Numbered from the stretch's first letter, positions 8,745 to 54,596 are shown. The stretch is 64,000 bases of DNA from an uncultured Planctomycetales bacterium (GCA_964487475.1 CAZAPM010000012.1:2031-66030); one strand, 5' to 3'. Notes: generated by a model from the letters alone, not told the origin. Program-made: numbers and translations.

Positions 8745-8821
<77 letters not shown>

Positions 8822-8882
8822 ATAAGCCTGATTGTCATTTGCTGCCTGATCCGCTGCTGCCTGTACCGCCGCACTGGATCAA

Positions 8883-8964
8883 TGCGGACGGAGGGATTTG
8901 AACCCCCAAGGGTCACCCCAATAGCTCCTAAGGCTATCGCGTATGCCAGTTCCGCCACGTCCGC
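8883..8964 (-). tRNA. tRNA-Leu (anticodon TAG), long variable arm
   Basis: Reverse complement GCGGACGTGGCGGAACTGGCATACGCGATAGCCTTAGGAGCTATTGGGGTGACCCTTGGGGGTTCAAATCCCTCCGTCCGCA; class-II tRNA; anticodon loop CTTAGGA. Confidence 0.8.
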
Positions 8965-9134
8965 TTAGCAAAAGCGCACCCCCCAGCAAGGGGGTACTGG
9001 CGCAATACCGCTAAGCGCCAGGTACCGCGCGTGGGGAAAAACTCAATGAGCCTCTCCCTCGCATAATCGACCCTTCGATTCCTCCGGAATCTTCGGGTCA
9101 TGCTTCGGGACACGGCGTCAACCAACCAGATCAA

Positions 9135-9207
9135 TGAGCCTCCCGCGACTCGAACGCGGCACAGCCACCTTAAAAGGGTGGTGCTCTACCAGATGAGCTA
9201 GAGGCCC
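9135..9207 (-). tRNA. tRNA-Lys (anticodon TTT)
   Basis: Reverse complement GGGCCTCTAGCTCATCTGGTAGAGCACCACCCTTTTAAGGTGGCTGTGCCGCGTTCGAGTCGCGGGAGGCTCA; GTTCGAGTC T-loop; anticodon loop CTTTTAA. Confidence 0.8.
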
Positions 9208-27757: not shown

Positions 27758-27825
27758 ACCACTCCTCCTTTGTTGGTTGGTGCTTATTTATACATACTAT
27801 GCATGTATTTTAGGCAGGAAAGAGC

Positions 27826-27915
27826 AAAAAAAAAGACAAAAACGACCCAGCCCACAGGGACGTCTTTGTCCAAATCGGTAATTTTCAGCATAACACAAAG
27901 CCTTACGCTGTCAAA
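27826..27915 (-). promoter_or_regulatory. Leader of the gltB-domain gene: sigma70-like promoter (TTGACA-N16-TATGCT) followed by a 10-bp-stem hairpin plus U9 (attenuator-like), then a palindrome ATACATGCATAGTATGTAT before the RBS
   Basis: Minus-strand reading: TTGACAGCGTAAGGCTTTGTGTTATGCT…GACAAAGACGTCCCTGTGGGCTGGGTCGTTTTTGTCTTTTTTTTT…AAGGAGGAGTGGTATG. Confidence 0.5.
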
Positions 27916-32431: not shown

Positions 32432-33877
32432 TTACATTGAAGGCAGATCGCTTCTCCCCATCAGGTGCTCGTCAATGGCCCGTGCGGCTTTACGCCCTTC
32501 GGAGACCGCCCACACGATCAGCGACTGGCCGCGCCGCATATCCCCGGCACAGAATACGCCTTTCTTCGACGTCATATACCGGGCGTCGGTCTTGACATTA
32601 CCCCGGGGGTCAAGCTCCAGGCCCAGGTCCTTCAGCAGCCCGTCATGTTCGGGATGCACGAACCCTACCGCCAGGACCGCCATATCGCATTCGATCTCGA
32701 ATTCGCTTCCGGACATCTCCCGCATCAGGGCACACCCCTTGGCATCCTTCTGGGAAAAATCGACCTCCACGCACTCGATCTTCGACAGCCTCCCCTGCTC
32801 CCCGATGAAACGCTTGGTCAGGACCGCCCACTTACGCTCGGCGCCTTCTTCATGGCTGGTGGAGGTCTTCAAAAGCATCGGGTATTTCGGCCAGGGCTGG
32901 TCGCATGTCCGCTGATCGGCCGGCCGGGGCATCACCTCGATCTGCACCACGCACGCCGCCCCCTGTCGGTTGGCAGTACCCACGCAATCGGCGCCGGTAT
33001 CCCCGCCTCCGATCACCAGGACCTTCTTGCCCTTCGCATCGATACGGGTATCCGCGCTTATGCGCGCTCCGGAAACCAGACGATTGGACTGCATCAGATA
33101 ATCCATGGCGAAATATATCCCCTGCAGCTCGCGGCCTTCGATGTTCAGGTCGCGGGCAGCGCGGGCACCGCCGGCAAGACAGACCGCGTCAAAATCCTTG
33201 AGCAGCTTTTCCGCGGCATACCCTTTGCCCACGTGGGTCGAGGTGGCGAACACGATGCCCTCCTCCTCGAGGATCTTGAGCCTGCGGTCGATCACGCTCT
33301 TTTCCAGCTTGAAGTCGGGAATGCCGAAACGCAGTATCCCTCCCGCTTTCTCGTCACGCTCGAAGACCGTCACCGTATGCCCGGCCTTATTGAGCTGATC
33401 GGCGCAGGAAAGCCCCGCCGGCCCGCTGCCGACCACCGCCACCTTCTTGCCGGTGCGCGTCGCCGGAGGGTTCGCCTTCACCAGCCCGCGCGCGAACGCC
33501 TCCTCGATGATATCCCGCTCATTCTCCCGGATGGTCACCGCGTCATCGTTGATCCCCAGCACGCAGGCGTATTCGCACAGCGCCGGACAAAGCCTGCCGG
33601 TGATCTCCGGCAGGTTGTTCGCCGCCTGCAGCAGGGCGAACGCCTTCTGCCATTTTCCGTGGTAGACGGCATCGTTCCACTCGGGGATATAATTCCCTAC
33701 CGGGCAGGCCCAATGGCAGAACGGCGTGCCGCAATCCATGCACCGCGAAGCCTGCGCCCGGGACTCCTCCCCCTCGCGCGGCTGCGTGACATCCCGGTAA
33801 TCCTTGACACGCTCGCATACCGGGCGGTAATGCGCCTTTTGCCGCTTGACCTTCAGGAAACCTTTCACGTCGCCCAT
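32432..33877 (-). CDS. gltD: Glutamate synthase small (beta) subunit, NADPH-dependent
   Basis: 481 aa; N-terminal Fe-S Cys clusters (CMDCGTPFC…CPALCEYAC), two Rossmann motifs (VAVVGSGPAGL, VLVIGGGDTGADC). Confidence 0.9.
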   Translation of the reverse strand: MGDVKGFLKVKRQKAHYRPVCERVKDYRDVTQPREGEESRAQASRCMDCGTPFCHWACPVGNYIPEWNDAVYHGKWQKAFALLQAANNLPEITGRLCPALCEYACVLGINDDAVTIRENERDIIEEAFARGLVKANPPATRTGKKVAVVGSGPAGLSCADQLNKAGHTVTVFERDEKAGGILRFGIPDFKLEKSVIDRRLKILEEEGIVFATSTHVGKGYAAEKLLKDFDAVCLAGGARAARDLNIEGRELQGIYFAMDYLMQSNRLVSGARISADTRIDAKGKKVLVIGGGDTGADCVGTANRQGAACVVQIEVMPRPADQRTCDQPWPKYPMLLKTSTSHEEGAERKWAVLTKRFIGEQGRLSKIECVEVDFSQKDAKGCALMREMSGSEFEIECDMAVLAVGFVHPEHDGLLKDLGLELDPRGNVKTDARYMTSKKGVFCAGDMRRGQSLIVWAVSEGRKAARAIDEHLMGRSDLPSM

Positions 33878-33880
33878 AGC

Positions 33881-36800
33881 TTATTCCAGGTTCTCCGCCA
33901 GGCCCATCTTCTCCTCCTGCTTCTTGGCTTCCAGGATCCGCTTGTACTCCAGCGGCATGACCTTGACGAAATGGTTGAGTTCATGATTGAAATGCGCGAG
34001 AAGCTTTTCCGCTGCCGCGCTTGCCGTATATTTGAAATGGCTGCGGATAAGGTCGTGCATCACCGCCTCATCCTCCCCGTCCGGCTCCTGCAGCTCGATC
34101 ATCTCCAGGTTGCAGCGGGATTTGAATTTTCTCTGCGGGTCGTAGACATAGGCGATCCCTCCGGACATCCCGGCGCCGAAGTTCCTGCCGGTCTCTCCCA
34201 GGATCACCAGGCGTCCTCCGGTCATATATTCGCAGCCGTGGTCCCCCACGCCTTCCACTACCCCGTAAAGGCCGGAGTTGCGGATACAGAACCGTTCCCC
34301 GGCCATGCCCCGGATATACGCCTCCCCGGTGATGGCGCCGTAGAACGTGGTATTGCCGATGATGATGTTCTGCGAGGAATCGAAGCGGGCTTTTTTGTCG
34401 GGATAGATGATGATCTTTCCGCCGGAGATGCCTTTTCCGACGTAGTCGTTGGCCATGCCCTCCAGCTCGAAGGTAACACCCTTTGCCAGCCAGGCCCCGA
34501 AGCTCTGCCCGGCCACCCCGAGGAATTTGCAGGTGATGGTATCCTCCGCCAGGCCGTCCTCCCCGAAATTCCGGCACACCTGGCCGGAAAGCATCGCGCC
34601 CGTGGTACGGTTATAATTTCGGATCGGCAGCTCGATCTTCACCGGGGTCTGCGCCTGCAACGCGGCGGACGCCTTCTCGATCAGGGTACGGTCGAGCACC
34701 TTATCGATACCGTGGTCCTGGGAAATGGTGCAGCGGGTCTTGACGGACGCGGGCACCTCCGGCTTATACAGCAGCCGGGAGAAATCGATGGCCTTCGCCT
34801 TCCAGGGGATGATCCCGGTATTCGCCTCCAGCAGGTCGGTGCGGCCGACCAGCTCCTCCAGGGTCAGGATACCCAGGCTCGCCATGATCTCGCGCAGCTC
34901 TTCGGCCACGAAACGCAGGTAGTTCTCCACGTATTCCGGCTTGCCGCGGAAACGCTTGCGCAGGATCTCGTCCTGAGTGGCCACTCCCACGGAACAATTG
35001 TTGAGATTACAGTGGCGCAGCATCACGCAGCCGAGCGTGATCAGCGCGGCGGTACAGAACCCGTACTCCTCGGCCCCCAGCATGGCGGCGATAGCCACGT
35101 CGCGGCCGGTGCGCATCTGGCCGTCGGTCTGCAGCCGCACGCGGCTGCGCAGGTCGTTCAAGACCAGCGTCTGGTGGGTCTCGGAAAGCCCCAGTTCCCA
35201 GGGAAGGCCGGCGTGCTTGATCGAGCTCAAAGGGGACGCCCCGGTGCCGCCGTCGAAGCCGGAGATGAGGATCATGTCCGCGTGGCCCTTGGCCACGCCT
35301 GCCGCGACCGTCCCCACGCCGATCTCGGAGACCAGCTTGACGCTGATGCGCGCGCCGGGATTGGTGTTCTTCAGGTCGAATATCAGCTGCGCCAGGTCCT
35401 CGATGGAATAGATATCGTGGTGCGGCGGCGGGGAGATCAGGGTCACTCCCGGAGTGGTATACCGGGTCTTGGCGATGGTGACGCTCACTTTATGCCCGGG
35501 CAGCTGCCCGCCTTCTCCGGGCTTGGCGCCCTGGGCGATCTTGATCTGCAGCTCATCACCGTTGACCAGATAATTGGTGGTCACCCCGAAGCGGCCGGAA
35601 GCCACCTGCTTGACCGCGCTGCGCAGGGAATCCCCGTTCGGCAGGGGCCGGAAACGCATGGGATCCTCTCCGCCCTCCCCGGTATTGGACTTTCCCTTGA
35701 GCCGGTTCATGGCGACGGCCAGCGCCTCATGCGCCTCTTTGCTGATGGAGCCGAAACTCATGGCTCCGGTGACAAAGCGGGTCACGATGGAAGACACCGG
35801 CTCGACCTTCTCCAGAGACACCGGAGTGCCGGATTTGAATTTCAAAAGACTGCGCAACGTCGCCGGCTGCGCCGATTGGTCGTTGATCAGTCCGGCGAAC
35901 TGACGGTACTTCTTCTGGTCCCCGCTCCACGCGGCATCCTGCAGCGCGGCGATGGATTCCGGGTTCCAGAGATGGAACTCCCCGTCCTTCTTCCATTGGT
36001 ACACCCCTCCGGTGGAAAGCATCGGGGGCTGCTGTACCGTCGCGTACGCCTGCGCATGCCGCAAGAGCGTCTCCTGCGCGATCACCCCTAAGTCCGCGCC
36101 TCCGATACGGGAAACGGTCCCGGGGAAACACTGTTCTATCACATCCGAATTCAGGCCAAGGGCCTCGAAGATCTGGGCGCCGCGGTAACTCTGCAAGGTC
36201 GAGATCCCCATTTTCGAGAGCACCTTCAGGATCCCCTTTTCCACCGCCTTGATGTAATGATACTGCGCTTTTTCCGCGAGCTTAGGCTCGATCTCCCCCT
36301 CTTCGATCATGGAAGAGATAGCCTCGTACGCCAGGTAAGGATTGACGCAATCCACGCCGTAGCCGAAAAGCAGGGCGAAATGATGCACTTCCCGCGGCTC
36401 GCCGCTTTCCACGATGATGCTGATCTGGGAACGCAGCGACCTCTTGACCAGGTGATGATGCACCGCCCCTGCCGCCAGGAGCGCCGGAAGCGCCGCCTTC
36501 TGCGGAGATACCCCCCGGTCGCTTAAGATGATGAAGGTATACCCTTCGCTGATCGCCGCCTCGGCTTCCCGGCGGATCCGCTCCAGGGTCAACGCAAAGT
36601 CCTCTTTTTTCCCGGCATCGAAGAGCACGGAGATGGTCTTGGTCCTGAACCCGCCCTCGCGTATGGAAGAAAGCTTGGCCAGCTCGGCGTTGGAAAGGAT
36701 GGGATGTTTGACCCGGACCTTATGCGCGTGCGCCGCGGTCTCCTCCAGGGTGTTCTTATCGGGGCCGAGGTATGTCTCCAGGCTCATGACCAGCTCTTCC

Positions 36801-38407
36801 CTGATGGGATCGATGGCCGGATTGGTGACCTGGGCGAAAAGCTGCTTGAAATACCCGTACAGCACCTGCGGCCCCTTGGAGAGCACCGCGTGAGGCGTAT
36901 CGCTGCCCATGGCGCCCACCGGCTCCTGGCCGGTCTCGGCCATGGGTTTGATCACCGTGCGCAGGTCTTCCCGGGTGTACCCGAACGCCTTAAGCTGCGC
37001 GAGCGCCTCGGGACCATACCCCTTGGCTGCCTTACCCGGCGCCACGGAATCCAACTCGACCATGTGCTGCGAGATCCACTGGCCGTACGGCTGGCGGCCG
37101 GAGATCTGGCGCTTGACCTCCTCATCCTCGATGATGCGCCCTTCCTCGGTATCGATGTAAAAGATCTTGCCCGGCTCGAGCCGTCCGGATCTGACGATAT
37201 CCGCGGGCTTGATATCCAGCACCCCCATCTCGGAGGCCATGACCACGAAATCATCCTTGGTCACCAGATAGCGCGCCGGACGCAAACCGTTGCGGTCCAG
37301 CAGCGCGCCGATACGGGTGCCGTCGGTAAAGGCCATGGCCGCCGGGCCGTCCCAGGGCTCCATCAGGCAGGCGTGGTACTTGTAAAAATCCACCAGCCCC
37401 GGGTCCATCTGCGAGTGCTGCTGCCAGGCTCCGGGGATGAGCATCATCATGGCGTGCGGTAAAGACCTGCCGGAGAGCACCAGGAGTTCCAGGGCGTTGT
37501 CGATGGCCGCGGAATCGCTGCCTCCGGGCACGATGACCGGATAGATATCCTTGAGCTCGCGGCCGAATTCCCGGCTTTTCAGCAGCCCCTCCCTGGCGCG
37601 CATCCAGTTGATGTTCCCGCGCAACGTGTTGATCTCGCCGTTATGCGCCAGGAAACGGAAAGGCTGCGCCAGGTCCCAGGTCGGGAAGGTGTTGGTACTG
37701 TAACGGGAATGGACCAGGCACAGGGCGCTTTGCAGCGTATGGTCCTGCAGATCGACGAAGAAGCTCTCCACCTGCTCCGGCATCAGAAGACCCTTGAAGG
37801 AGAAGGTGCGGCTGGAAAGGTTGGTGATATAGAAAGACTGTTTCTGCGCAAGGTTCGATCCGCGCACGGCGTTCTCCACCGTCTTACGGATCACGTACAG
37901 CGCCCGCTCGAACGCCAGGACATCCGTCAGGGAGTGCGCCCGGCCCACGATGATCTGCTCGATCACGGGAGCGGTCTCCTTGGCGGTGACGCCGATATCG
38001 CTGTCATCCACCGGGACCTTGCGCCATCCCAGGAGCTCCTGACCCTCTTTTTTCACCGCTGCGGCGAACGCATCCTTGCAGAACTGGCGCTCTTTCGCAT
38101 TTTGCGGCAGGAACACCAGACCGCTGGCATAGGCGCCCTGCGCGGGAAGCGCGACCTTCGCCTCCTCCGCCGCTTTCGCCATGAAGGCATGCGGCATCTG
38201 GATGAGGATGCCGGCGCCGTCCCCGGTCTTGGGGTCCGCGCCCGTGGCGCCGCGATGGGAAAGCCGCACCAGGATCTCCAGGCCCTGCCTGATGATATGA
38301 TGGGTCCTGGCGCCTTTGATATCGCAGACGAACCCTACCCCGCAGGCGTCATGCTCGAAACGCGGGTCATACAGACCGAAATGTGAGAGTCTCTCTCGTG
38401 CGTTCAT
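33881..38407 (-). CDS. gltB: Glutamate synthase large (alpha) subunit
   Basis: 1508 aa; N-terminal Ntn amidotransferase (CGVGFVCDIKG), central domain, FMN domain and C-terminal GXGXG domain. Confidence 0.92.
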   Translation of the reverse strand: MNARERLSHFGLYDPRFEHDACGVGFVCDIKGARTHHIIRQGLEILVRLSHRGATGADPKTGDGAGILIQMPHAFMAKAAEEAKVALPAQGAYASGLVFLPQNAKERQFCKDAFAAAVKKEGQELLGWRKVPVDDSDIGVTAKETAPVIEQIIVGRAHSLTDVLAFERALYVIRKTVENAVRGSNLAQKQSFYITNLSSRTFSFKGLLMPEQVESFFVDLQDHTLQSALCLVHSRYSTNTFPTWDLAQPFRFLAHNGEINTLRGNINWMRAREGLLKSREFGRELKDIYPVIVPGGSDSAAIDNALELLVLSGRSLPHAMMMLIPGAWQQHSQMDPGLVDFYKYHACLMEPWDGPAAMAFTDGTRIGALLDRNGLRPARYLVTKDDFVVMASEMGVLDIKPADIVRSGRLEPGKIFYIDTEEGRIIEDEEVKRQISGRQPYGQWISQHMVELDSVAPGKAAKGYGPEALAQLKAFGYTREDLRTVIKPMAETGQEPVGAMGSDTPHAVLSKGPQVLYGYFKQLFAQVTNPAIDPIREELVMSLETYLGPDKNTLEETAAHAHKVRVKHPILSNAELAKLSSIREGGFRTKTISVLFDAGKKEDFALTLERIRREAEAAISEGYTFIILSDRGVSPQKAALPALLAAGAVHHHLVKRSLRSQISIIVESGEPREVHHFALLFGYGVDCVNPYLAYEAISSMIEEGEIEPKLAEKAQYHYIKAVEKGILKVLSKMGISTLQSYRGAQIFEALGLNSDVIEQCFPGTVSRIGGADLGVIAQETLLRHAQAYATVQQPPMLSTGGVYQWKKDGEFHLWNPESIAALQDAAWSGDQKKYRQFAGLINDQSAQPATLRSLLKFKSGTPVSLEKVEPVSSIVTRFVTGAMSFGSISKEAHEALAVAMNRLKGKSNTGEGGEDPMRFRPLPNGDSLRSAVKQVASGRFGVTTNYLVNGDELQIKIAQGAKPGEGGQLPGHKVSVTIAKTRYTTPGVTLISPPPHHDIYSIEDLAQLIFDLKNTNPGARISVKLVSEIGVGTVAAGVAKGHADMILISGFDGGTGASPLSSIKHAGLPWELGLSETHQTLVLNDLRSRVRLQTDGQMRTGRDVAIAAMLGAEEYGFCTAALITLGCVMLRHCNLNNCSVGVATQDEILRKRFRGKPEYVENYLRFVAEELREIMASLGILTLEELVGRTDLLEANTGIIPWKAKAIDFSRLLYKPEVPASVKTRCTISQDHGIDKVLDRTLIEKASAALQAQTPVKIELPIRNYNRTTGAMLSGQVCRNFGEDGLAEDTITCKFLGVAGQSFGAWLAKGVTFELEGMANDYVGKGISGGKIIIYPDKKARFDSSQNIIIGNTTFYGAITGEAYIRGMAGERFCIRNSGLYGVVEGVGDHGCEYMTGGRLVILGETGRNFGAGMSGGIAYVYDPQRKFKSRCNLEMIELQEPDGEDEAVMHDLIRSHFKYTASAAAEKLLAHFNHELNHFVKVMPLEYKRILEAKKQEEKMGLAENLE

Positions 38408-38427
38408 ATACGGAACCTGTGCTTCGG

Positions 38428-38805
38428 TTACACTTTGAATGAGTCCGGATCGATCCCCAGCTTCTTGATTTTTGCGCGGATGGTATTGCGGTTTAACCCA
38501 AGGATTTTAGCGGCTTTAAGCTGGTTTCCCTCGGTACGCTCCAGCACAGACTCAATAATGGGTTTTTCCAGTATCTCTAAAAGAGATTTATATAATACAC
38601 CCTTTTTTTCATCGTACAAGTTATTTTCCAGCTCGCGGATGGATCGGGAAATGCTGCCGCCCGCGTCAGCGGAGGGCTTCTTCATCACATGCACGACGCC
38701 TTCCTGGCGGGCATCCTCCTGCATGCAGAACCCCTGCCGCTCCAGCACCTGCGCGATGATCTCTTTGACCCGCCTGTCCTCTTCCGTGATCCGCAATGTC
38801 ACCAT
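38428..38805 (-). CDS. Small Fis-family (HTH_8) DNA-binding protein, a stand-alone NtrC-C-terminus-like HTH
   Basis: 125 aa; C-terminal LERTEGNQLKAAKILGLNRNTIRAKIKKLGI is a Fis/NtrC-type HTH. No sigma54 AAA+ or receiver domain. The 20-nt gap to gltB suggests co-transcription. Confidence 0.6.
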   Translation of the reverse strand: MVTLRITEEDRRVKEIIAQVLERQGFCMQEDARQEGVVHVMKKPSADAGGSISRSIRELENNLYDEKKGVLYKSLLEILEKPIIESVLERTEGNQLKAAKILGLNRNTIRAKIKKLGIDPDSFKV

Positions 38806-38924
38806 CGTGATTAATTTTTATGCAACGCACCGTTAAAAAAAAGCGCCCAAGAAAAGGCCTCTCCCCTTGAACGCCGGCGTTCATGCAACCAATCACGCGG
38901 TACGGCACTGTACCCCGCCATATA

Positions 38925-38954
38925 TACAAGTAAAAAAAAGCCGCGGGTGGTAAC
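38925..38954 (-). promoter_or_regulatory. Site D of the conserved bipartite motif GTTACCA-N14-TTACTTGTA, upstream of the Fis-like-gltBD operon
   Basis: Plus strand reads TACAAGTAA-N14-TGGTAAC. The GTTACCA half lies in the 3' arm of the glnN terminator stem. Confidence 0.6.
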
Positions 38955-38977
38955 ACCTAAGTGTTACTACCCGCGGC
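38932..38977 (-). terminator. Rho-independent terminator of glnN (17-bp stem with one mismatch, TTAG loop, T8)
   Basis: Minus strand: GCCGCGGGTAGTAACAC-TTAG-GTGTTACCACCCGCGGC-TTTTTTTT, starting 18 nt after the glnN stop. Confidence 0.75.
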
Positions 38978-38994
38978 TTGAGGTACCGCGCGGA

Positions 38995-41183
38995 TTACTT
39001 GATAAAAAGCATCTCCCGGTACTTCGGCAGATCCCAATGCTCGTCGGAGACCACGGCCTCGAGCGCATCCACGTGCTTGCGGATGTGCGCCATCAGAGGC
39101 TTGAGCTCCTCAAAATAGAGCATCGCCCGCTCCTCGCCTTCCATCTTGGCCGCCTTTTCCAGGAGCTTGACCATCTCCTTGGCGTTACGGCGGACGTAGA
39201 AGACCATGGAGACCACCTCGCTCAAGTGGTTCTTCAGGTCCTCGAAGGCCTTGGTATCCACCTTGACCGCCGATTTCTTGAGCGCGGCGATCGCGCCCAC
39301 GTTATCCGCCAGCATCTTCTGGTATTCCAGGCCGGCCGGAACCACGCTGGCGTTGACCATCTCGTGCAGGGTATTGGCCTCGATCTCGAGCAGGAGGCAG
39401 TACGTATGCACCCAGATATGGAAACGCGCCAGCACCTCCTCCTTGGTGAACACCTTATATTTCTCGAAGAGCGCGACGTTCGCCGGCTTCTTCAGGGCCT
39501 CGAGCGCTTCCACGGCGGAGGCGACGTTCGGCAGCCCCCGTTTCTTGGCTTCTTTAACCCACTCTTCCGAATAGTTATTGCCCTCGAAACGGATCGCCTT
39601 GTGCTCCTTGTAGAGCCTGGCCACCACCTTGAGCACCGCGGCGTTGAAATCCCCCTTCGCCGCCTCTTTTTTGATCTCGGAGGCCACGTAATCCAGGGAT
39701 TCCGCGATGATGGTATTGATCACGGTCAGAGGTGTAGCGATGTTCTGGGAGGACCCCACGGCGCGGAACTCGAACTTGTTGCCGGTAAAGGCAAACGGCG
39801 AAGTGCGGTTGCGGTCGGTGGTATCCTTATTGAATTTCGGCAGCCGGCCTACGCCCACGTCATACACTTCCTGGCCGGACATCTTCTCTTTCACGCCCTT
39901 CTCGATGGCATCCACGATCTTGACCAGCTGATCGCCCAGGAAGACGCTTACGATCGCCGGAGGCGCTTCGTTGGCGCCCAGGCGGTGCTCGTTGCCGGCG
40001 GTCGCCACGGCCGCGCGCAACAGGTCCGCATGCAGGTGCACGGCACGCAGCACCGCTGCCAGCACTGCCAGGAACTGCAGGTTATCCGCGGGAGTTTCCC
40101 CGGGATTAAGCAGGTTATTGCCCTTATCGTCCGCCATGGCCCAGTTCACGTGCTTGCCGCTTCCGTTGATCCCGGCAAAGGGCTTCTCGTGCAGCAGGCA
40201 GACCAGGTTATGGCGCAACGCCACCTTCTTCATGATCTCCATGAGCATCTGGTTATGGTCGGTGGCCAGGTTCGACTCCTCGAAGATCGGCGCGAACTCA
40301 TACTGGTGCGGCGCCACTTCGTTATGCCGGGTCACTACCGGGATCCCCAGCTTATACGCTTCTTCCGCCACTTCGAACATATAATTGAGCACCCGCTCCT
40401 TGATGGACCCGAAATACTGGTCTTCCATCTGCTGGCCCTTAGGGGACGGAGCACCCACGAGGGTGCGGCCGGCCATCACCAGGTCCTGGCGCAGGTTGTA
40501 ATAGTTCTTATCGATCAGGAAATACTCCTGTTCCGGGCCGCAGGTAGAGATGACCTTTTTCACGTCATGCCCGAACATCCTGAGCAGATTGCACGCCGCC
40601 TTGCTCACCGCTTCGTCGGAACGCAGCAAAGGCAGTTTCTGGTCCAGCGCCTCGCCGTGATAGGCGATGAAGATGGTGGGGATACAAAGGGTCTTGCCCA
40701 GCTTGGCCTCGGTGATGAACGCGGGGCTGGAAGGGTCCCACGCCGTATACCCGCGGGCTTCGAAGGTCGCGCGGATACCGCCCGAAGGGAAAGAGCTGGC
40801 ATCGGGCTCGCCCTGGATGAGCTTCGATCCGGAGAACTTCTCGATGACCTTGCCCGGGCCGGTGATGGAGATGAACCCGTCGTGCTTCTCGGCGGTCAAG
40901 CCGGTCATGGGCTGGAACCAGTGGGTATAAAAAGTGGCTCCCTTGGCCATCGCCCATTCCTTCATGGCATTGGCGATCTCGTTCGCCTGTTCCAGGGAGA
41001 TGGTCTTGCCTTCGTTGAGCCACATCTTAAAGGCTTCAAAGGTCTCCTTGGAGATATGCTTTTGCATGGTCTCCATGCTGAAGGTGTTCTCCCCGAAATA
41101 GGAAGAGACCTTTTTGGGAGACTCGACTTTCTTCAGATCGACACTATTGATCTTGAACAACGCTTCATGACGGATACCCATTG
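38995..41183 (-). CDS. glnN: Glutamine synthetase type III
   Basis: ~729 aa from MGIRHEALFKIN… (RBS AAGGAGG 6 nt upstream; the ORF track extends it to 41313). GSIII-specific N-terminal domain plus GS catalytic domain (TFYTHWFQPMTGLTAEKHD…). Confidence 0.88.
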
Positions 41184-41348
41184 CTTCCTCCTTGACTGGT
41201 TTCTCTAATTGGACCATTTTACCACATCCCGGAACCGGCGCACACAAAAAAAAGACGTCCGCAGGCAAAACCGCTCTGCCTCGAACGCCGCTGTTCGCTG
41301 CTAAATCACGCACCCCTCAGTGCCTAAAAATCGACCACCCACATAAAG

Positions 41349-41378
41349 TACAAGTAAAACTGCAGACTTATTGGTAAC
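41349..41378 (-). promoter_or_regulatory. Site A of the conserved bipartite motif GTTACCA-N14-TTACTTGTA, 166 nt upstream of glnN
   Basis: Plus strand: tacaagtaa aactgcagacttat tggtaac. Confidence 0.6.
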
Positions 41379-41421
41379 CCGGAAAGAACTTCACCCGGCA
41401 TCCCGATAAGCCGAGGTGAAA

Positions 41422-41763
41422 CTATCCAATAGCCTGCGAACCCCGCTCTTCGGTACGGATACGCACGCACTCCTTCAAGTCCAGGATGAATATCTTCCCG
41501 TCCCCGGTCTCCCCGGTCTTGGCGCCCTTGATGATCGCCTTGACCGTCGGCTCCACGAAGTTATCGTTGACCGCGATCTCGAGCCTGACCTTGCGCAGCA
41601 GATTCCCGGATTCCCGGGCCCCGCGGTACACTTCGGTCACTCCCTTCTGCCGGCCGTGCCCCAGCACCTCGGAGACGGTGATCAGATGCACATCCGCCTT
41701 ATACAACTCCTCTTTGACCTCTTCCAGCTTGTACGGCTGGATTATCGCGATGATCAGCTTCAT
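41422..41763 (-). CDS. glnK: Nitrogen regulatory protein P-II (GlnK-type, downstream of amt)
   Basis: 113 aa; [20 protein letters not shown]…; T-loop [17 protein letters not shown] with Tyr51. Confidence 0.92.
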
Positions 41764-41788
41764 AGTGTCCCCTTTCGCAAATGCAGGA

Positions 41789-43030
41789 TCATTCCACCAG
41801 GGTATACGCCCGCTCCCGGTGCTGGGTCAGGTCCAACCCCATCAGCTCGTCCTTGACGCTGATGCGCACCTTCATGAACACATCCACCAGCTTGTAAAGG
41901 ATATAGGTGACCGCCATGGTATAGAGGCCGCATACCGCCACGGCAAAAAGCTGCACCAGCAGCAATTTGGGGTTTCCTGACAACAACCCGTCCGCTCCGG
42001 CAGCATTCACGGCCTTGGTCGCAAAGAGCCCCGTCAGAAGCGTTCCCAGTACGCCGCCGACACCGTGCACGCCGAAGGCGTCCAGGGAATCGTCATATCC
42101 GAATTTTGGCTTGATCAGCGCCACGGCGATAAAACAAAGCACGCTGGCGATGATCCCGATCACGATGGCGGAAAAAGGCGTCACGAACCCTGCGCCCGGA
42201 GTGATCGTAGCCAGGCCCGCGATACAGCCCGTGGCCGTGCCGAACATGGTCGGCTTGCCGTTTCTGATCCACTCCAGAAGCGCCCAGGACAAACCGGCTG
42301 CGGCAGCCGCAGTATTGGTGGTCATGAACGCGTTCGCCGCGACGCCGTTGGCAGCCAAGGCGCTTCCGGCATTGAACCCGAACCACCCGAACCACAACAG
42401 GCCGGTGCCCAACACCACCAGCGGAAGGTTATGCGGAGAAGGAACGTTATGTTCGATGTTCTTCCTCTTGCCGATCACCACGGTCGTGACCAGCGCCGCG
42501 ATACCCGCGGTAGTATGCACCACCAACCCGCCGGCAAAATCCAGCACTCCCAACTTACGCAGCCATCCGCCCATTCCCCACACCCAGTGGCATACCGGAG
42601 CGTAGACGAACGTCACCCACAAAAGCGTGAACACCAGGAACGCGGAGAACTTCATCCGCTCCGCGAACGCGCCGATGATCAATGCGGGGGTGATCACCGC
42701 GAACATCGCCTGGAACATGATGAACGCCTGGTGCGGGATACCCGGCGCATAATCCGCGTAAGGCTCCAAACCGATGCCGCGCATCCCCACCCAGGAAAAC
42801 CCTCCCCAGAACCCCTCGCCGGGGGCAAAAGCCAGGCTGTAACCGAACACCACCCAGCAGACGCTGACCAGGCACATGGCCACAAAACACTGCATCAGCA
42901 CGTTGAGGATATTCTTGCGCCGCACCATACCCCCGTAAAAGAACGCCAGACCCGGGGTCATCAGCATGACCATCGCTGCAGACATCAATACAAACGCCGT
43001 ATCGCCCGCGCTTATACCTATATTCTCCAT
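41789..43030 (-). CDS. amt: Ammonium transporter (Amt family), no signal peptide
   Basis: ~413 aa from [16 protein letters not shown] (RBS GGGAGG; the ORF track extends it to 43159). Amt signature motifs (DFAGG, FGFNAGS). Confidence 0.9.
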
Positions 43031-43074
43031 TCCCGCCTCCCTTACTTGCTTTCTGCACACACCCCGGCTTAAAG

Positions 43075-43136
43075 CACCCCGTCTTAATCGGATTGACGGG
43101 TACCCCGCATGTGCGGGGGTCTGCCGGGTGTGTTGC
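43075..43136. repeat. Dual-hairpin element copy (loop TTAATCGGATTG, then ccccgc-atgt-gcgggg) in the amt1 5' leader
   Basis: caccccgtcTTAATCGGATTgacgggtaccccgcatgtgcgggggtctgccgggtgtgttg; ~85% identical to 25021-25082. Confidence 0.7.
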
Positions 43137-43146
43137 TTGCTGCAAC

Positions 43147-43198
43147 AAAAAACGTTCATCCCCCCCGGATGGTCCGGAGAGGATGAACGCCATTGTTC
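43147..43198 (-). terminator. Strong intrinsic terminator in the amt1 leader, with an overlapping GAAC-AATGGC-GTTC hexaloop hairpin (alternative structure)
   Basis: Minus strand: AGAACAATGGC GTTCATCC TCTCCGGACCATCCGGGGG GGATGAAC GTTTTTT. The upstream small hairpin (stem GAAC/GTTC) shares its GTTC with the terminator's 5' arm. Confidence 0.65.
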
Positions 43199-43204
43199 TT
43201 TTAG

Positions 43205-43234
43205 TACAAGTAAATCGGAGGAGCGTTTGGTAAC
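43205..43234 (-). promoter_or_regulatory. Site B of the conserved bipartite motif GTTACCA-N14-TTACTTGTA, 175 nt upstream of amt1
   Basis: Plus strand: tacaagtaa atcggaggagcgtt tggtaac. The GGGTTAC half also forms an inverted repeat, GTAACCC-TTGCT-GGGTTAC. Confidence 0.6.
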
Positions 43235-43316
43235 CCAGCAAGGGTTACACTCGGCATTAGTACTTCAGCTTATAGCACCCGGCCTAATCGGATCGGCCGG
43301 TGCTAAGCCCTCCTGC

Positions 43317-43658
43317 TTAGCCGATCGCCGTGCTACCGGTCTCCTCGGTACGGATGCGCACGCACTCCTTTAGATCCAGGATGAAGATCTTCCCGTCGCC
43401 GGTCTCCCCGGTCTTGGCGCCGCGGATGATCGCCTTGACCGTCGGCTCCACGAAGTTGTCGTTGACCGCGATCTCGAGCCTGACCTTGCGCAGCAGGTTG
43501 CCGGATTCCCGGGCCCCGCGGTACACTTCGGTCACTCCCTTCTGCCGGCCGTGCCCCAGCACCTCGGAGACCGTGATCAGGTTGACTTCCGACTTGTACA
43601 GCTCCTCTTTTACCTCTTCCAGCTTATACGGCTGGATTATCGCGATGATAAGTTTCAT
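43317..43658 (-). CDS. glnK: Nitrogen regulatory protein P-II, second copy (6 aa differences from the first)
   Basis: 113 aa; near-identical to 41422..41763 at both protein and DNA level. Confidence 0.92.
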
Positions 43659-43672
43659 GAGTATCCTCCTTA

Positions 43673-45007
43673 TTATTCCAGCAGGGTGTATGAACGTTCG
43701 TGGTGCTGCGTCAAATCCAGGCCCATGAGCTCCTCTTTCTCGCTCACGCGCGCGCCCAGGACCAGATCCACCACCTTATAGATCACGAAGGTGACCACGC
43801 CCGCGTACACCGCGGTGATCCCCACTGCCGCCGCCTGGATCAGGAGCTGCTGCGGATTGCCGAAGAAAAGGCCGTCCGCGCCCGCGGCGTTCACCGCTTT
43901 CGAAGCGAAGAGGCCGGTCGCCAGCGCGCCCCAGATGCCGCCGACGCAGTGCACGCCAAAAGCGTCCAAAGCATCGTCATACCCGAACTTGGGCTTGAGG
44001 TAGCTTACCGCAAAGTAGCAGAGGAAGCTGACCGCGAACCCGATGATGACCGCCGGGACGACACTCACAAATCCCGCCGCAGGAGTGATCGCGACCAACC
44101 CGGCCACCACACCCGAGACCACGCCGAAAAGCGTAGGCTTGCCGTTCTTGATCCATTCGATCAGCGCCCAGCTCAAGCCTGCCGCTGCGGCCGCGGTATT
44201 GGTCACCACGAACGCATTGACCGCCAGGCCGTTCGCGGAAAGCGAGCTTCCGGCGTTAAAGCCGAACCACCCGAACCACAACAACGCGGTTCCCAGCGCC
44301 ACAAAGGGAAGGTTATGCGGAGCGGGAACGTTCTTATCGAGATTCTTCCTCTTTCCGATCACGATCGCCGTCACCAGCGCCGCGATACCGGCATTGATAT
44401 GCACCACGGTCCCTCCGGCAAAATCCAGCGCGCCCATCTTACGCAGGAATCCGCCGACCGCCCATACCCAGTGGCACACCGGAGAGTACACGAAGGTCGC
44501 CCAGAGCAAGGTGAACACCAAAAACGAAGAAAATTTCATCCTCTCCGCGAACGCGCCGATGATCAACGCCGGCGTGATGATCGCGAACATCGCCTGGAAG
44601 ATCATGAACGCCTGATGCGGGACAGTCGCGGAGTAATCGGCGTACGGCTCAAGGCCAACACCGTTCAGACCCGCCCACCCCAACCCTCCCCAGAAACCGT
44701 CTCCCGGCTTAAAGGAAAGGCTGTACCCGAAAAGCACCCAGAACACGCTCATCACGCACAGGATGATAAAACACTGCATCAGGACGCTTAACATGTTCTT
44801 CTTTCGCACCATGCCTCCGTAAAAGAACGCCAGACCCGGGGTCATGATCATGACCAACGCCGAGGAGATCAGGACCCAGGCCGTATCCCCGGTATCCGCC
44901 ACGGGCGCTGCCGCGACATCCTGCGCCCACGCCGGAACCACCAGTGCCATCACTCCCAGCAAGAGCAGAAGCCCTGCCGGTACTGCTTTACGCAACCACG
45001 TGCTCAT
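43673..45007 (-). CDS. amt: Ammonium transporter (Amt family) with cleavable N-terminal signal peptide
   Basis: ~444 aa from [30 protein letters not shown] (RBS AAGGAGG; the ORF track extends it to 45151). ~75% identical to Amt1. Confidence 0.9.
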
Positions 45008-45037
45008 TGTTTCCTCCTTTTGTATATCCCCGTCAAC

Positions 45038-45090
45038 AAAAAAGACGCCTTCCATCCTCTCTCTGAGGATCAAAGACGTCTGCGTCTTTC
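45038..45090 (-). terminator. Nested-hairpin intrinsic terminator in the amt2 leader
   Basis: Minus strand: AAAGACGCAGACGTCTTT…AGACGTC-TTTG-ATCCTC-AGAGA-GAGGAT-GGAA-GGCGTCT-TTTTTT. Confidence 0.55.
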
Positions 45091-45181
45091 TGCCTAAAAC
45101 AAAATGGGCGCCCGCTGCTATCGCGAACGCCTTTGTATTCTTTGCACACATCCCCGTGTGCCGTGCTGCCTGCTACAGTAC

Positions 45182-45211
45182 TACAAGTAAATTACGGACA
45201 ACCCTGGTAAC
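45182..45211 (-). promoter_or_regulatory. Site C of the conserved bipartite motif GTTACCA-N14-TTACTTGTA, 175 nt upstream of amt2 (overlaps the sigma gene stop)
   Basis: Plus strand: tacaagtaa attacggacaaccc tggtaac. Confidence 0.6.
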
Positions 45212-45752
45212 ACCCCGCATCCAAATGGGTGCGGCACTTCTCCTGCATGGTCTTGCGCAGCTTCACCACCCGCACGTGGGAGACCCCCAGACGGCTTCCG
45301 ATCTCCCGCACGGTCAGTCCGGAAAGGCTTAAACGGAACACCTGCTTCTCCCTGTCCGTAAGGCCGTTATTATTGATCGCCTCGATGATCAGGGACGCAT
45401 TCACCGTATCGAATGCGCTGGGGACGGTCTTCTCGGAAAGTATATCCTCCAGGGAGCACTCCGTATCGCCGCTTCCGACACACGCTTCCAGGCTGGTCAG
45501 GGAAGCTTTGTCCATATGCGTGCGCAGAAAATTCTTCAGATGAAAATAGCACCCCTGCAGGATATAGCTCCTGGTCTTGTGCTCCCAGGCGCCCTGCATA
45601 TACCTGTTCCAGAGGAAAAGTACCGCCTCCTGATAGAGGTCCTCGGCCTGCAGCGCAGGCGAACGCGCCTGCATCCCCGCCCGGTAGGAGATCCTCCTGA
45701 GGGTCACCGACACGTCCTTGAGTAAAGTTTCGAATGTGTTCTTCATAATCAA
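45192..45752 (-). CDS. RNA polymerase sigma-70-family factor, ECF-like (regions 2 and 4 only), Cys-rich C-terminus
   Basis: 186 aa; region 2 AEDLYQEAVLFLWNRY; region 4 HTH LTDREKQVFRLSLSGLTVREIGSRLGVSHVRVVKLR. Confidence 0.75.
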   Translation of the reverse strand: MIMKNTFETLLKDVSVTLRRISYRAGMQARSPALQAEDLYQEAVLFLWNRYMQGAWEHKTRSYILQGCYFHLKNFLRTHMDKASLTSLEACVGSGDTECSLEDILSEKTVPSAFDTVNASLIIEAINNNGLTDREKQVFRLSLSGLTVREIGSRLGVSHVRVVKLRKTMQEKCRTHLDAGCYQGCP

Positions 45753-45783
45753 ATAAAAAACGCCCTTCCTCCCGCTGCGCGGG

Positions 45784-45926
45784 AAAAAGGACGCCGTAGT
45801 CCTTACTTAACAAAAAAGGCCCTCCGCAGGCTAAACCTTACATTCGCCCTTGGAAGACCTCATAGTCTTCGCTGATTACAACCCTGTAATCACTCTAGAT
45901 TATAGCATCCCTGGAGAGGATGTCAA
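45784..45926 (-). promoter_or_regulatory. Consensus sigma70 promoter (TTGACA-N16-TATAAT) overlapping the nadE stop, with a +1 palindromic operator TGATTACA-GGGT-TGTAATCA, followed by a ~140-nt leader with three hairpins (two with U-tracts) before the sigma gene
   Basis: Minus strand: GCTTGACATCCTCTCCAGGGATGCTATAATCTAGAGTGATTACAGGGTTGTAATCAGC GAAGAC-TATGAG-GTCTTC … GGCC-TTTTTT … AGGAC-TACGGC-GTCCT-TTTTT-CCCGC-GCA-GCGGG AGGAAGGGCG-N12-ATG. Confidence 0.6.
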
Positions 45927-52935: not shown

Positions 52936-53697
52936 TTAATGATGCGATTCTTGAGCGTTCAAGAATATCGCGAAATACACCGTACTCAACAGACTGAACA
53001 CCAGCGCCTGGATCAGCGCCGCCAGCAGCCCCATGCCCAGCGCAAAGACCGTGAACGGCAGCCCCAGGATGCCGAAGTTCGCGAAGGTCGCCAGCAGCAG
53101 CTCGTCCCCCCAGATATTGCTGCGCAAACGCAGCGCCAGGGACAACGGCTTGAGCAATTCGGTGAGCAAATGCAGGGACAGCATGAACACCGGCAGGATC
53201 AGCGTCCAGGCCATGGCGCCGCGGGGGCTTCCCGCAAGGTGATCGACGTACTTCCTGATCCCCAGGGTCCTGATAGCCATATACTGCACATAGGCGAACA
53301 CGCACAGGGACAACGCGAAGGTCGCGGAGAGGCTGGCCGTGGCCGCTTTCATGAAAGGCAGGAGACCCAGCAGGTTCATGGAGAATATATAGATGAAAAG
53401 GGTGCCGATGAAAGGGGTGAATCTCCGGCCCTGGGGGCCGAGGATCCCGCAGACGAAGGAATCCAGCCCTTCCACCACGGATTCCGCGGCATTCTGCAGT
53501 TTTCCCGGGATGAAGGACGGCGCCCGGGAAGCCGCGAAGGCCAGGACGCTTAAGAGGCCCGCGGCGATCCCCGCGAACGCCACGAACTCCCAATGGCGCA
53601 ACACTGCTGCCGCCGGCAGATGCGGAAAGGCATCGGCCAGCAGCGAGAACACATCGGGTAACTCCGGCAAAACCCCTGCCGCGTGCGACTCGGACAC
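52936..53697 (-). CDS. atpB: ATP synthase subunit a (GTG start)
   Basis: 253 aa; five TM helices; conserved Arg-containing helix (LSLALRLRSNIWGDELLL). Confidence 0.85.
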   Translation of the reverse strand: MSESHAAGVLPELPDVFSLLADAFPHLPAAAVLRHWEFVAFAGIAAGLLSVLAFAASRAPSFIPGKLQNAAESVVEGLDSFVCGILGPQGRRFTPFIGTLFIYIFSMNLLGLLPFMKAATASLSATFALSLCVFAYVQYMAIRTLGIRKYVDHLAGSPRGAMAWTLILPVFMLSLHLLTELLKPLSLALRLRSNIWGDELLLATFANFGILGLPFTVFALGMGLLAALIQALVFSLLSTVYFAIFLNAQESHH

Positions 53698-53766
53698 GTT
53701 TCCCCCTAAAGCAAAAAAGCGTACCTTATCCTCGTTTCAAGAATAGGGACGCCGTTATCCTTTAAC

Positions 53767-53860
53767 AAAAAAACGCTCGCGCATTTCGAGCGAACGTCGT
53801 CATTGCCGCATTACCACTTTGTAATTATTTCAAGTATAGCGCAATTCTCCCGTTTGTCAA
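53767..53860 (-). promoter_or_regulatory. atp operon promoter (TTGACA-N16-TATACT) and ~130-nt leader: a +1 hairpin ATTAC-AAAGTG-GTAAT (hexaloop A1/G4), a 17-nt linker, then the terminator hairpin CGCTCG-AAATGCG-CGAGCG plus U7
   Basis: Minus strand: TTGACAAACGGGAGAATTGCGCTATACTTGAAATAATTACAAAGTGGTAATGCGGCAATGACGACGTTCGCTCGAAATGCGCGAGCGTTTTTTTGTTAAAGGATAACGGCGTCC…AGGGGGAAACGTG(start). Confidence 0.6.
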
Positions 53861-53873
53861 GGAATGAATGCGC

Positions 53874-54596
53874 TTAATGCCGCTTGCCCTTGATCTCGCG
53901 GGCCATGATCACCGCTTCCGCCACCTCGCGCATGGTCTTGCGGGAATCCATGCTCTGCTTCTGGATGAGACGGAACGCCTCCGCGGAGGAGACATTGGCA
54001 TCCTGCGAGAGTATGTCCTTGGCGCGTTCCACGAGCTTGCGGGTCTCCAGCGCTTCCTCGGCGCTTTGGGCGCGCAGGGAAAGCTCGGCGTTCTCGATGG
54101 CGATCGCGGCCTGGTTGGCCACGGCGGTCAGGATCCCCAGCTCGGGCTTGGTGAACTCCCTTTTCTTCGAAGTATAACAGTTCAGCACCCCGATCACCCG
54201 GCCCTTGACGGACAGAGGCACGCAGGCCAAAGACACCAGCCCTTCCTTCGCGGCGATATCCTGGTTCAGATAACGCGCATCCTTGCGCACATCCGGCACG
54301 CAGATAGCCTTGTTCTCTTTCGCCACCAGACCGGCGATCCCCTCGCCGAGCGGGATATTGGGCTTCTTGTTGTAACGCTCCGAGATCGACTGCGTGGATT
54401 TAACCACCAGCTCCTTGCGCTCCGGGTCCAGCAGCATCAGGGAGCAGATGTTGGAGTTCATGATCTCGGCGGTGATGTGCACCACCAGCCGCAGCAGCTC
54501 CTCCAGGTACAACCCCGAAGTGATGAGGTTGGCGACCTTGGAAAGGGCCTCGATCTGCTTAAAGTAGATCTGATAATGCTTGGTCTGCGCAGGCAT
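53874..54596 (-). CDS. GAF-ANTAR two-domain RNA-binding antitermination regulator
   Basis: 240 aa; N-terminal GAF fold; C-terminal ANTAR helices LETRKLVERAKDILSQDANVSSAEAFRLIQKQSMDSRKTMREVAEAVI (AmiR/NasR-type). Confidence 0.8.
   Translation of the reverse strand: MPAQTKHYQIYFKQIEALSKVANLITSGLYLEELLRLVVHITAEIMNSNICSLMLLDPERKELVVKSTQSISERYNKKPNIPLGEGIAGLVAKENKAICVPDVRKDARYLNQDIAAKEGLVSLACVPLSVKGRVIGVLNCYTSKKREFTKPELGILTAVANQAAIAIENAELSLRAQSAEEALETRKLVERAKDILSQDANVSSAEAFRLIQKQSMDSRKTMREVAEAVIMAREIKGKRH

Follow-up and report, generated by a model that had tools for sequence, protein, structure and literature searches.

A conserved bipartite motif, an ECF-like sigma factor gene and ANTAR-type leaders in the nitrogen-assimilation clusters of Omnitrophota and related uncultivated bacteria

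Introduction

Textbook nitrogen control is exerted by sigma-54/NtrC, NtcA, GlnR/TnrA, AmtR or NrpR, and several of the sites involved (the sigma-54 -24/-12 element, NtcA GTA-N8-TAC, GlnR/TnrA TGTNA-N7-TNACA, and NrpR GGAA-N6-TTCC) are short elements common to the amt, glnK, glutamine synthetase (GS) and glutamate synthase (GOGAT) operons. The motif described here, GTTACCA and TTACTTGTA separated by 14 nucleotides, has the same kind of distribution. It was noticed in a 64,000-nucleotide stretch of DNA (called the window below) from an uncultured Planctomycetales bacterium (GCA_964487475.1, CAZAPM010000012.1:2031-66030), where it precedes four nitrogen-assimilation transcription units next to the gene of a sigma factor resembling the extracytoplasmic function (ECF) type. 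Unlike the classical nitrogen sites, it is asymmetric, 30 bp long and located at the core promoter. It is probably the promoter recognized by this sigma factor, within a feed-forward cascade leading from a GAF-ANTAR protein to the sigma factor and on to nitrogen operons carrying ANTAR leaders.

Among the group 4 (ECF) sigma factors regulated through their own transcription and using a strict bipartite box, HrpL with the hrp box shows some of the same features: a sigma factor of about 180 aa consisting of sigma2 and sigma4, which has no adjacent anti-sigma gene and is controlled via its own expression, and target promoters with two near-invariant halves at a fixed distance. The present locus differs in lacking the AAC -35 and CGT -10 elements, in having a nitrogen regulon, and in that RNA antitermination would replace the sigma-54 activators acting upstream.

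The closest described analogue is the nasF operon of Klebsiella oxytoca, in which a sigma-54/NtrC promoter is combined with antitermination by NasR, a NIT-ANTAR protein (PMC12591593): a specialized-sigma promoter is followed by an ANTAR decision at a hexaloop/terminator leader, as is proposed here. In the case of the present locus, a small ECF-like member of the sigma-70 family takes the place of sigma-54 and its enhancer-binding protein, GAF replaces NIT as the sensor domain, the targets are amt/glnK, glnN and gltBD and not nitrate assimilation genes, and the sigma gene itself is predicted to be gated by the same type of leader.

In the 2012 ANTAR study by Ramesh et al. (PMC3369931), the RNA targets of ANTAR proteins were reported to be dual hexaloop hairpins with A1 and G4, conserved closing pairs, and a second hairpin (P2) overlapping a terminator, located mostly upstream of nitrogen genes, and the GAF-ANTAR architecture was termed uncharacterized. 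The EutV/AmiR/NasR and Desulfotomaculum/Pelobacter regulons considered there share with the leaders described below the hexaloops with G4 and, less regularly, A1, the closing pairs and the P2-terminator overlap, as well as the position of the leaders before P-II, ammonium transporter and glutamine/glutamate synthase genes and the presence of an ANTAR protein encoded nearby. The Omnitrophota, on the other hand, were outside that study, and the present system has a GAF-ANTAR partner, a dedicated promoter class, and some leaders with one hairpin or with two tandem terminator modules. No earlier description of the motif, of a dedicated ECF-like sigma factor for nitrogen assimilation, of Omnitrophota with ANTAR, or of an ECF sigma factor with an ammonium transporter was found in the literature searched. 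A previous reading of the window made by a model (the sequence-only reading) had taken the locus for an undescribed nitrogen regulon: this applies to the putative promoter and its candidate sigma factor, and not to the regulation of P-II, amt, GS and GOGAT genes by ANTAR proteins, which was already known; what is new in the latter respect is the occurrence of ANTAR leaders, with a GAF-ANTAR protein, in a phylum not previously examined.

The motif and its conservation

A pattern search of the window placed TACAAGTAA-N14-TGGTAAC on the plus strand, which reads GTTACCA-N14-TTACTTGTA on the minus strand, at exactly the four positions previously proposed:

45182..45211, minus strand: motif site 4, putative promoter of amt2-glnK2, overlapping the 3' end of the sigma gene (last codons and stop codon)
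43205..43234, minus strand: motif site 3, putative promoter of amt1-glnK1
41349..41378, minus strand: motif site 2, putative promoter of glnN
38925..38954, minus strand: motif site 1, putative promoter of HTH_8-gltB-gltD

No match to the pattern occurred in 100 dinucleotide shuffles of the window, and no fifth site was found anywhere in the 64 kb when up to three mismatches were allowed. The distances from the end of the motif to the start codon are 120 nt (HTH_8-gltBD), 168 nt (glnN), 175 nt (amt1) and 175 nt (amt2), in agreement with those given in the sequence-only reading except in the case of glnN, for which 166 nt had been stated. As also stated there, the halves are conserved and the four spacers are unrelated to one another; the spacers do, however, have a T-rich 3' end in common.

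A total of 185,579 species genomes (one per species, 596 Gb) were scanned for GTTACCA-N13-TTTACTTGTA, where N13 and a fixed T together equal the 14-nt spacer of the original motif. At least 120 loci were obtained, 72 of which carry an Omnitrophota or Omnitrophica label; among the matches listed, about 39 further loci from metagenome-assembled genomes (MAGs) with other labels show the same gene context, and about nine are isolated, chance-like matches in unrelated genomes. The non-chance loci (774 kb) contain 136 exact copies of the motif, all of them with a 14-nt spacer, and the only variants are 15 copies with one mismatch and two copies with two; no spacer length other than 14 nt was found there when lengths of 10-17 nt were checked. 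Most of the mismatches affect the T added to the scan pattern, which indicates that the 16-base core first noticed is the true conserved unit. A 15-nt spacer, due to one extra T in a homopolymer, occurs in one locus (L165) of the sigma-ascertained set described below. The weaker features of the position matrix are a purine immediately before GTTACCA and RAA behind it, an A-tract covering positions -8 to -4, a T-run ahead of TTAC, and a conserved T/R about 5-6 nt past TTGTA.

In all, more than 110 loci from Omnitrophota and related MAGs have kept the motif. The fact that it is near-invariant across the phylum and tied to nitrogen genes, while its spacers and flanks diverge from locus to locus, bears out the view that it is a recognition site rather than a remnant of duplication.

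The genes behind the motif

The block of putatively regulated genes in the window spans 32432..45007 on the minus strand. The Pfam and NCBIfam matches supported the identities previously assigned (HTH_8, GltB, GltD, GlnN, two Amt/P-II pairs and an ECF-type sigma factor):

43673-45007, minus strand: amt2, putatively regulated gene
43317-43658, minus strand: glnK2 (P-II), putatively regulated gene
41789-43030, minus strand: amt1, putatively regulated gene
41422-41763, minus strand: glnK1 (P-II), putatively regulated gene
38995-41181, minus strand: glnN, type III glutamine synthetase (GSIII)
38428-38805, minus strand: HTH_8 protein, Fis-like
33881-38407, minus strand: gltB
32432-33877, minus strand: gltD

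In the motif-ascertained loci, the first recognizable gene downstream of the motif encodes Amt at 50 sites, GlnN at 27, HTH_8-GltB at 19 and GlnK at 12. The other sites are located mainly before porin genes ahead of amt (BBP2, Gcw_chp), before the gene of the type I glutamine synthetase (GSI) GlnA ahead of HTH_8-gltB, and before the gene of a class I glutamine amidotransferase, and single sites precede the genes of NifH, Hcp, a GAF-ANTAR protein, an EIIA-fused P-type ATPase and the A chain of ATP synthase. The nifH case is that of a MAG labelled Elusimicrobia (L094), the hybrid-cluster/prismane protein gene is found in L001, and the P-type ATPase, whose fused domain is EIIA(Ntr)-like, in L050; in some lineages, the regulon may thus reach nitrogen fixation, hydroxylamine/NO handling and ion transport. 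In the conserved loci, the motif nearly always stands before amt/glnK, glnN, glnA or gltB operons and, judging from this gene context, it marks a nitrogen-assimilation regulon, which is the outcome that the check proposed in the sequence-only reading called for.

The gene of the HTH_8 protein (125 aa) invariably follows the leader and precedes gltB, in about 19 loci as in the window, and the N-terminal 70 residues of the protein gave no family match. The protein might regulate gltBD specifically, or else its own gene.

The first motif-driven operon of many Omnitrophota loci opens with an outer-membrane beta-barrel gene (260-310 or 430-480 aa) preceding amt-glnK. The proteins are Gcw_chp-like, of an unassigned family, or BBP2 OmpL-like (L006, L014, L015, L026, L048 and others; L003, L004, L032, L070, L107), and the placement of the gene suggests that a nitrogen-regulated porin is involved. 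The window cluster contains no beta-barrel gene of this type before amt.

The sigma factor gene and its link with the motif

The two features of the window concerned are as follows:

45192..45746, minus strand: cluster sigma factor, ECF-like, 184 aa (sigma2 and sigma4 domains), candidate for the factor reading the motif
45899..45926, minus strand: sigma-70 promoter ahead of the sigma gene, of canonical type, TTGACA and TATAAT (12/12 matches) at a spacing of 16 nt, with TG in the spacer

In the motif-ascertained loci, a sigma homologue ends immediately upstream of the motif at 53 sites. In the reverse test, 80 metagenome loci were chosen solely because they carry a sigma homologue, and 76 of them had enough downstream sequence. 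In 63 of these 76 loci (55 exact matches), the motif is on the strand of the sigma gene and starts between -10 and +151 nt relative to the end of that gene; on the opposite strand of the same regions, it was present in 0/76 and the best match never had fewer than five mismatches. In most lineages, the distance between the sigma stop codon and the start of the motif is about 0-20 nt. This adjacency and the co-conservation of the two elements suggest that the adjacent sigma factor is the protein reading the motif.

The sigma factor matches TIGR02937 (sigma70-ECF) with a score of 51.3 bits (cutoff 42.9) over residues 7-177. Its identity had been correctly recognized in the sequence-only reading with the coordinates 45192..45752, and the ATG at 45746 is a more likely start than the TTG at 45752. 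It has the size and domain content of group 4 sigma factors (sigma2 and sigma4 only, about 170-200 aa, profile match). In the AlphaFold2 (AF2) model (mean predicted local distance difference test score, pLDDT, 79), two helical bundles are connected by a disordered linker, and the top matches of this model in a Foldseek search of the PDB are all sigma factors, including SigL and SigH of Mycobacterium tuberculosis and SigE of Escherichia coli. The protein search yielded a family of 946 homologues of about 174 aa. Those with a source name are annotated as sigma-70 family proteins and several of them come from Omnitrophica/Omnitrophota MAGs, as do those of the closest homologues (identity not exceeding 55%) for which an organism is named. 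The YILQGCYFHLKNY and ISHVRVVKL segments are nearly invariant in the family alignment, the almost invariant stretches being DKTDSYILQGCYFHLKNYIRK in region 2 and the helix-turn-helix GLTxREIGxRLGISHVRVVKL in region 4. The near-invariance of these segments, which are predicted to read DNA, fits that of the target motif.

In the window and in about 130 loci, the neighbors of the sigma gene are nadE or the GAF-ANTAR gene upstream and porin or amt genes downstream. A TTGACA-N17-TATACT promoter recurs ahead of sigma genes in other loci, and the canonical sigma-70 promoter is kept in many loci where the sigma gene is not directly behind nadE. In the window, nadE (glutamine-dependent NAD synthetase, 45923-47578, minus strand) lies directly upstream of the sigma gene, as it does in many other loci (L013, L073, L074, L089, L163, L170, L186, L187); in some of the nadE loci, the two genes are separated merely by a short hairpin or a terminator, and they may be co-transcribed where they are so closely spaced.

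ANTAR-type leaders

Every motif leader of the window contains ANTAR-type hexaloop hairpins overlapping intrinsic terminators, which did not figure in the sequence-only reading. The first hairpin is called P1 and the second P2:

45008..45181, minus strand: amt2 leader; P1 45144-45161, terminator 45107-45131 with 5' arm GGCGUUC; second module with hexaloop hairpin 45072-45089 and terminator 45044-45081
43031..43204, minus strand: amt1 leader; single hexaloop GAAC-AAUGGC-GUUC 43185-43198 overlapping terminator 43151-43191, no P1
41182..41348, minus strand: glnN leader; P1 41310-41323, P2 41282-41297 (CGAAC-AGCGGC-GUUCG), terminator 41254-41289
38806..38924, minus strand: HTH_8-gltBD leader; P1 38899-38914, P2 38868-38883, terminator 38842-38875 followed by a U-run
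45747..45892, minus strand: sigma gene leader; hexaloops 45873-45892 and 45853-45870, terminator 1 45816-45861; second module with hexaloop 45787-45804 and terminator 2 45759-45795, directly before the ATG

The hexaloops of the sigma leader are, in order, GAUUAC-AGGGUU-GUAAUC, GAAGAC-UAUGAG-GUCUUC and, after the first terminator, GGAC-UACGGC-GUCC, and the same succession of sigma-70 promoter, P1, P2, terminator, hairpin and terminator is kept before the sigma genes of many other loci. Tandem hexaloops (two or more) are present at sites 1, 2 and 4 and in the sigma leader, and a single one at site 3 and in a class of glnN leaders. At all four window sites, GGCGUUC forms both the 3' part of the second (or only) hairpin and the 5' arm of the terminator, which is provided with a U-run.

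The typical hairpins are RCAC-AnnGnn-GUGY in the case of P1 and GAAC-AnnGGC-GUUC in that of P2, and the dominant closing stems are GAAC/GUUC, ACAC/GUGU, GCAC/GUGC and AGAC/GUCU, the 5' side ending in AC and the 3' side starting with GU. At least one strict A1/G4 hexaloop hairpin was found in the first 70 nt of 104 of the 147 leaders, versus 15.9 +/- 4.1 in shuffled sequences (maximum 29), and at least two in 61 of them, versus 2.4 (maximum 7). G4 was required by the hairpin scan, yet it is also an invariant column in an alignment based on the sequence only. RNAalifold analysis of 45 leaders aligned in this way showed P1 to be 97% paired, with compensatory AU-to-GC changes and an invariant loop G, and recovered the GGCGUUC terminator together with the sharing of this arm by P2; the P2 helix, which is weak (3 bp), is conserved in sequence, as would be expected of an antiterminator stabilized by a protein.

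At the Rfam gathering score, the window gave only three tRNA matches, and the 38400-46000 region gave two chance-level matches at E<=10. A glutamine riboswitch or another known RNA family was therefore rejected, GGCGUUC being the arm shared by P2 and the terminator. The tRNA genes (Gly-GCC, Leu-TAG and Lys-TTT, 8745-9207, minus strand) have no relation to the motif.

The intrinsic terminator of glnN is located at about 38938-38979 on the minus strand (dG -33 kcal/mol, z -5.4), and the -35-like half and the spacer of site 1 sit in its 3' arm and U-run. The U-run thus coincides with the T-rich end of the spacer, which makes for a very compact overlap between terminator and promoter. An inverted repeat, GTAAC...GTTAC, over the -35 half of site 1 was considered as an operator and rejected, since it corresponds to this terminator and orthologous sites do not share it. 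A conserved TGTGGTAAAAT box is present downstream of the glnN leader terminator and ahead of the start of glnN, at about 41217-41227 (minus strand), as well as in the glnN leaders of L015, L026 and L102. It resembles an extended -10 sigma-70 promoter and could allow basal glnN expression bypassing the attenuator.

Two further leaders of the window lie behind ordinary sigma-70 promoters:

53698..53860, minus strand: promoter and leader of atpB and the F-ATPase genes, TTGACA 53855-53860, 16 nt, TATACT 53833-53838
27758..27914, minus strand: promoter and leader of a Glu_synthase open reading frame (ORF), TTGACA 27909-27914, 16 nt, TATGCT 27887-27892

The former promoter comes directly after the GAF-ANTAR gene, and the leader carries P1 at 53810-53825 (AUUAC-AAAGUG-GUAAU) and then two terminator modules before atpB (52936-53697, minus strand), the F-ATPase operon extending down to about 47834. 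In L024, the nitrogen motif itself stands ahead of the ATP synthase A-chain gene, and ATP synthase may belong to the ANTAR/nitrogen regulon. In the latter leader, a single hexaloop, GGAC-AAAGAC-GUCC (27858-27871), overlaps the terminator preceding ORF 26165-27757 (minus strand), which encodes 530 aa with a Glu_synthase (FMN) domain only and looks like a further ANTAR-gated nitrogen gene lacking the sigma motif.

The GAF-ANTAR protein

A candidate antiterminator for the hexaloop hairpins is encoded 8 kb upstream of the cluster; it had likewise not been mentioned previously:

53874..54596, minus strand: GAF-ANTAR protein (Pfam GAF and ANTAR), candidate antiterminator for the hexaloop hairpins

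Homologues share an 8-kb locus with the sigma/nitrogen cluster in about 30 cases, and in several loci the GAF-ANTAR gene ends directly upstream of the sigma promoter. The homologue in L083, to which the window protein is 54% identical, is itself motif-driven. The GAF domain of the window protein is closest to those of PtsP (EI-Ntr) and NifA, which respond to glutamine and 2-oxoglutarate; this likeness gives a mere hint as to what the signal might be.

Promoter or operator

The conserved leader hairpins begin as near as 6-10 nt downstream of the motif, which leaves no space for a separate promoter and would place the motif itself at about -37 to -7. Sigma-70-like hexamers are absent from the two halves, whereas the same genomes do have canonical sigma-70 promoters, ahead of the sigma gene. 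The bipartite form, the rigid spacing, the upstream A-tract and the start-site context fit the promoter of an alternative sigma factor. That the motif might be the housekeeping promoter of the phylum was rejected: the sigma gene, atpB and the Glu_synthase-like gene are preceded by the sigma-70 consensus, and the motif is absent from the other 56 kb of the window. In line with the sequence-only reading, the known nitrogen sites did not fit either. The sigma-54 elements (TGGCAC-N5-TTGC; GG at -24, GC at -12) are not present in the motif or its matrix, and as regards the NtcA, GlnR/TnrA and NrpR half-sites, the halves are no inverted repeats and the -30 to +75 matrix contains no conserved palindrome.

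It is unlikely that a DNA-binding regulator, be it the HTH_8 protein or an unlinked factor, uses the motif as its operator or activator site, with the housekeeping sigma factor carrying out transcription. The recurrence of TTAC in both halves, at an interval of 20 bp or about two helical turns, would suit such a regulator, and the HTH_8 gene is a conserved regulon member whose product is related by NCBIfam to the Fis and NtrC DNA-binding domains. Fis and NtrC-type HTH_8 dimers bind inverted repeats, however, whereas the motif is asymmetric; it fills the entire core-promoter space, with no sigma-70-like -10 or -35 in it, and 16 near-invariant bases with a rigid spacer throughout a phylum are more typical of alternative-sigma promoters. 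In addition, the HTH_8 gene occurs only ahead of gltB; the sigma gene, by contrast, directly adjoins the first motif in 83% of the loci. Of the two candidates put forward in the sequence-only reading, the ECF sigma factor, which is physically linked to the motif, is thus the better one; the Fis-like protein is not favored because it is a regulon member attached to gltB and because the motif is asymmetric and at the core-promoter position.

Equally improbable is that the motif is the promoter of another alternative sigma factor encoded elsewhere, the adjacent sigma factor being a regulon member or serving another class of promoters. The pairing is based on adjacency and co-conservation, no co-variation between residues and bases has been found, and the sigma gene, located ahead of the motif, is not transcribed from it, in contrast to the genes of many autoregulated ECF sigma factors. 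Against this stand the short distance from the sigma stop codon in most lineages, the fact that the sigma family is about as widespread and conserved as the motif, the one-mismatch copy of the motif ahead of the sigma gene itself in L054, and the lack of a second conserved sigma gene in these loci.

A function of the motif as RNA (a processing or protein-binding site in a read-through transcript) or an origin as a repeat or mobile-element remnant can practically be discounted: the upstream genes (sigma, glnK, glnN) do end at a distance of 0-80 nt from the motif, in many cases with no clear terminator, which makes a read-through RNA covering the motif plausible, but the two halves cannot pair with each other, no Rfam family matches, a strong terminator ends inside site 1 and makes dependence on read-through impossible there, spacer and flanks are not conserved as they would be in a repeat copy, and the bipartite form with its rigid spacer fits recognition of double-stranded DNA.

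The proposed cascade

The reading in which the motif is the promoter of the adjacent sigma factor leads to the following scheme, in which we infer from the features observed in silico which protein binds the motif, where transcription starts, what the signal is and in which direction regulation acts. GTTACCA would be the -35-like half and TTACTTGTA the -10-like half of a core promoter read by the ECF-like sigma factor (45192-45746), with transcription starting about 5-8 nt past TTGTA. Each transcript would open with an ANTAR-type leader containing one or two hexaloop hairpins with G4 and usually A or G at position 1, and the 3' half of the second hairpin (GGCGUUC) would double as the 5' arm of the terminator. 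The active GAF-ANTAR protein (53874-54596), presumably under nitrogen limitation, would hold the hairpins, so that the terminator could not form and RNA polymerase would enter amt/glnK, glnN and gltBD. The sigma gene would be transcribed from an ordinary sigma-70 promoter and then pass two terminator modules gated by ANTAR. Since the same type of leader is present on the sigma gene and on the operons, ANTAR activity would be required twice, for sigma synthesis and for read-through of the operons, and the whole would amount to a feed-forward AND gate.

Several observations weigh against this scheme. An adjoining motif is lacking in 13 of the 76 sigma-ascertained loci, in at least two of which it is found further downstream, before amt or glnN. 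No convincing co-variation emerged when residues of the sigma factor were compared with the rare GTTACCG variant; in sigma4, position 144 seemed suggestive at first, but it varies also among the sigma factors associated with the canonical motif. Neither the AAC-containing -35 nor the CGT-like -10 of typical ECF promoters is present in GTTACCA and TTACTTGTA, and the TTAC common to both halves could be used by a tandem-binding transcription factor. No adjacent anti-sigma gene was found in the window or in the approximately 130 loci, although several recognized ECF groups have none either. Autoregulation of the sigma gene from its own motif was not seen in the window, where the gene has a canonical sigma-70 promoter instead, and L054 is the only locus with a one-mismatch motif upstream of it. 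As regards the leaders, there exists a single-hairpin class, which includes the amt1 leader of the window, whereas EutV needs two hairpins, and the first base of the loop is A in 59% of the hairpins, G in 30% and another base in 11% (in the window, where the four motif leaders and the sigma leader have 10 hexaloops between them, 4 show A1).

Significance

That Omnitrophota and some neighboring uncultivated lineages respond to nitrogen limitation by means of a dedicated ECF-like sigma factor, a 16-base promoter and a GAF-ANTAR feed-forward loop is, in our opinion, somewhat better supported than its contrary. If this is true, the sigma/GAF-ANTAR loop fills in these organisms the role played elsewhere by sigma-54/NtrC, NtcA, GlnR/TnrA or AmtR. 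The near-invariant promoter would provide a simple and specific marker for nitrogen-regulated genes in Omnitrophota metagenomes, the regulon candidates so far being porins, GSI, GSIII, GOGAT, NifH, Hcp and possibly the F-ATPase, and the sigma factor and its putative promoter would form a compact orthogonal pair, which is a candidate for use in heterologous hosts. A GAF-ANTAR protein linked to nitrogen metabolism is also made available here with its predicted RNA targets. A whole uncultivated phylum appears to use a different form of nitrogen control, which would combine a small sigma factor having a strict promoter with ANTAR antitermination at two levels.

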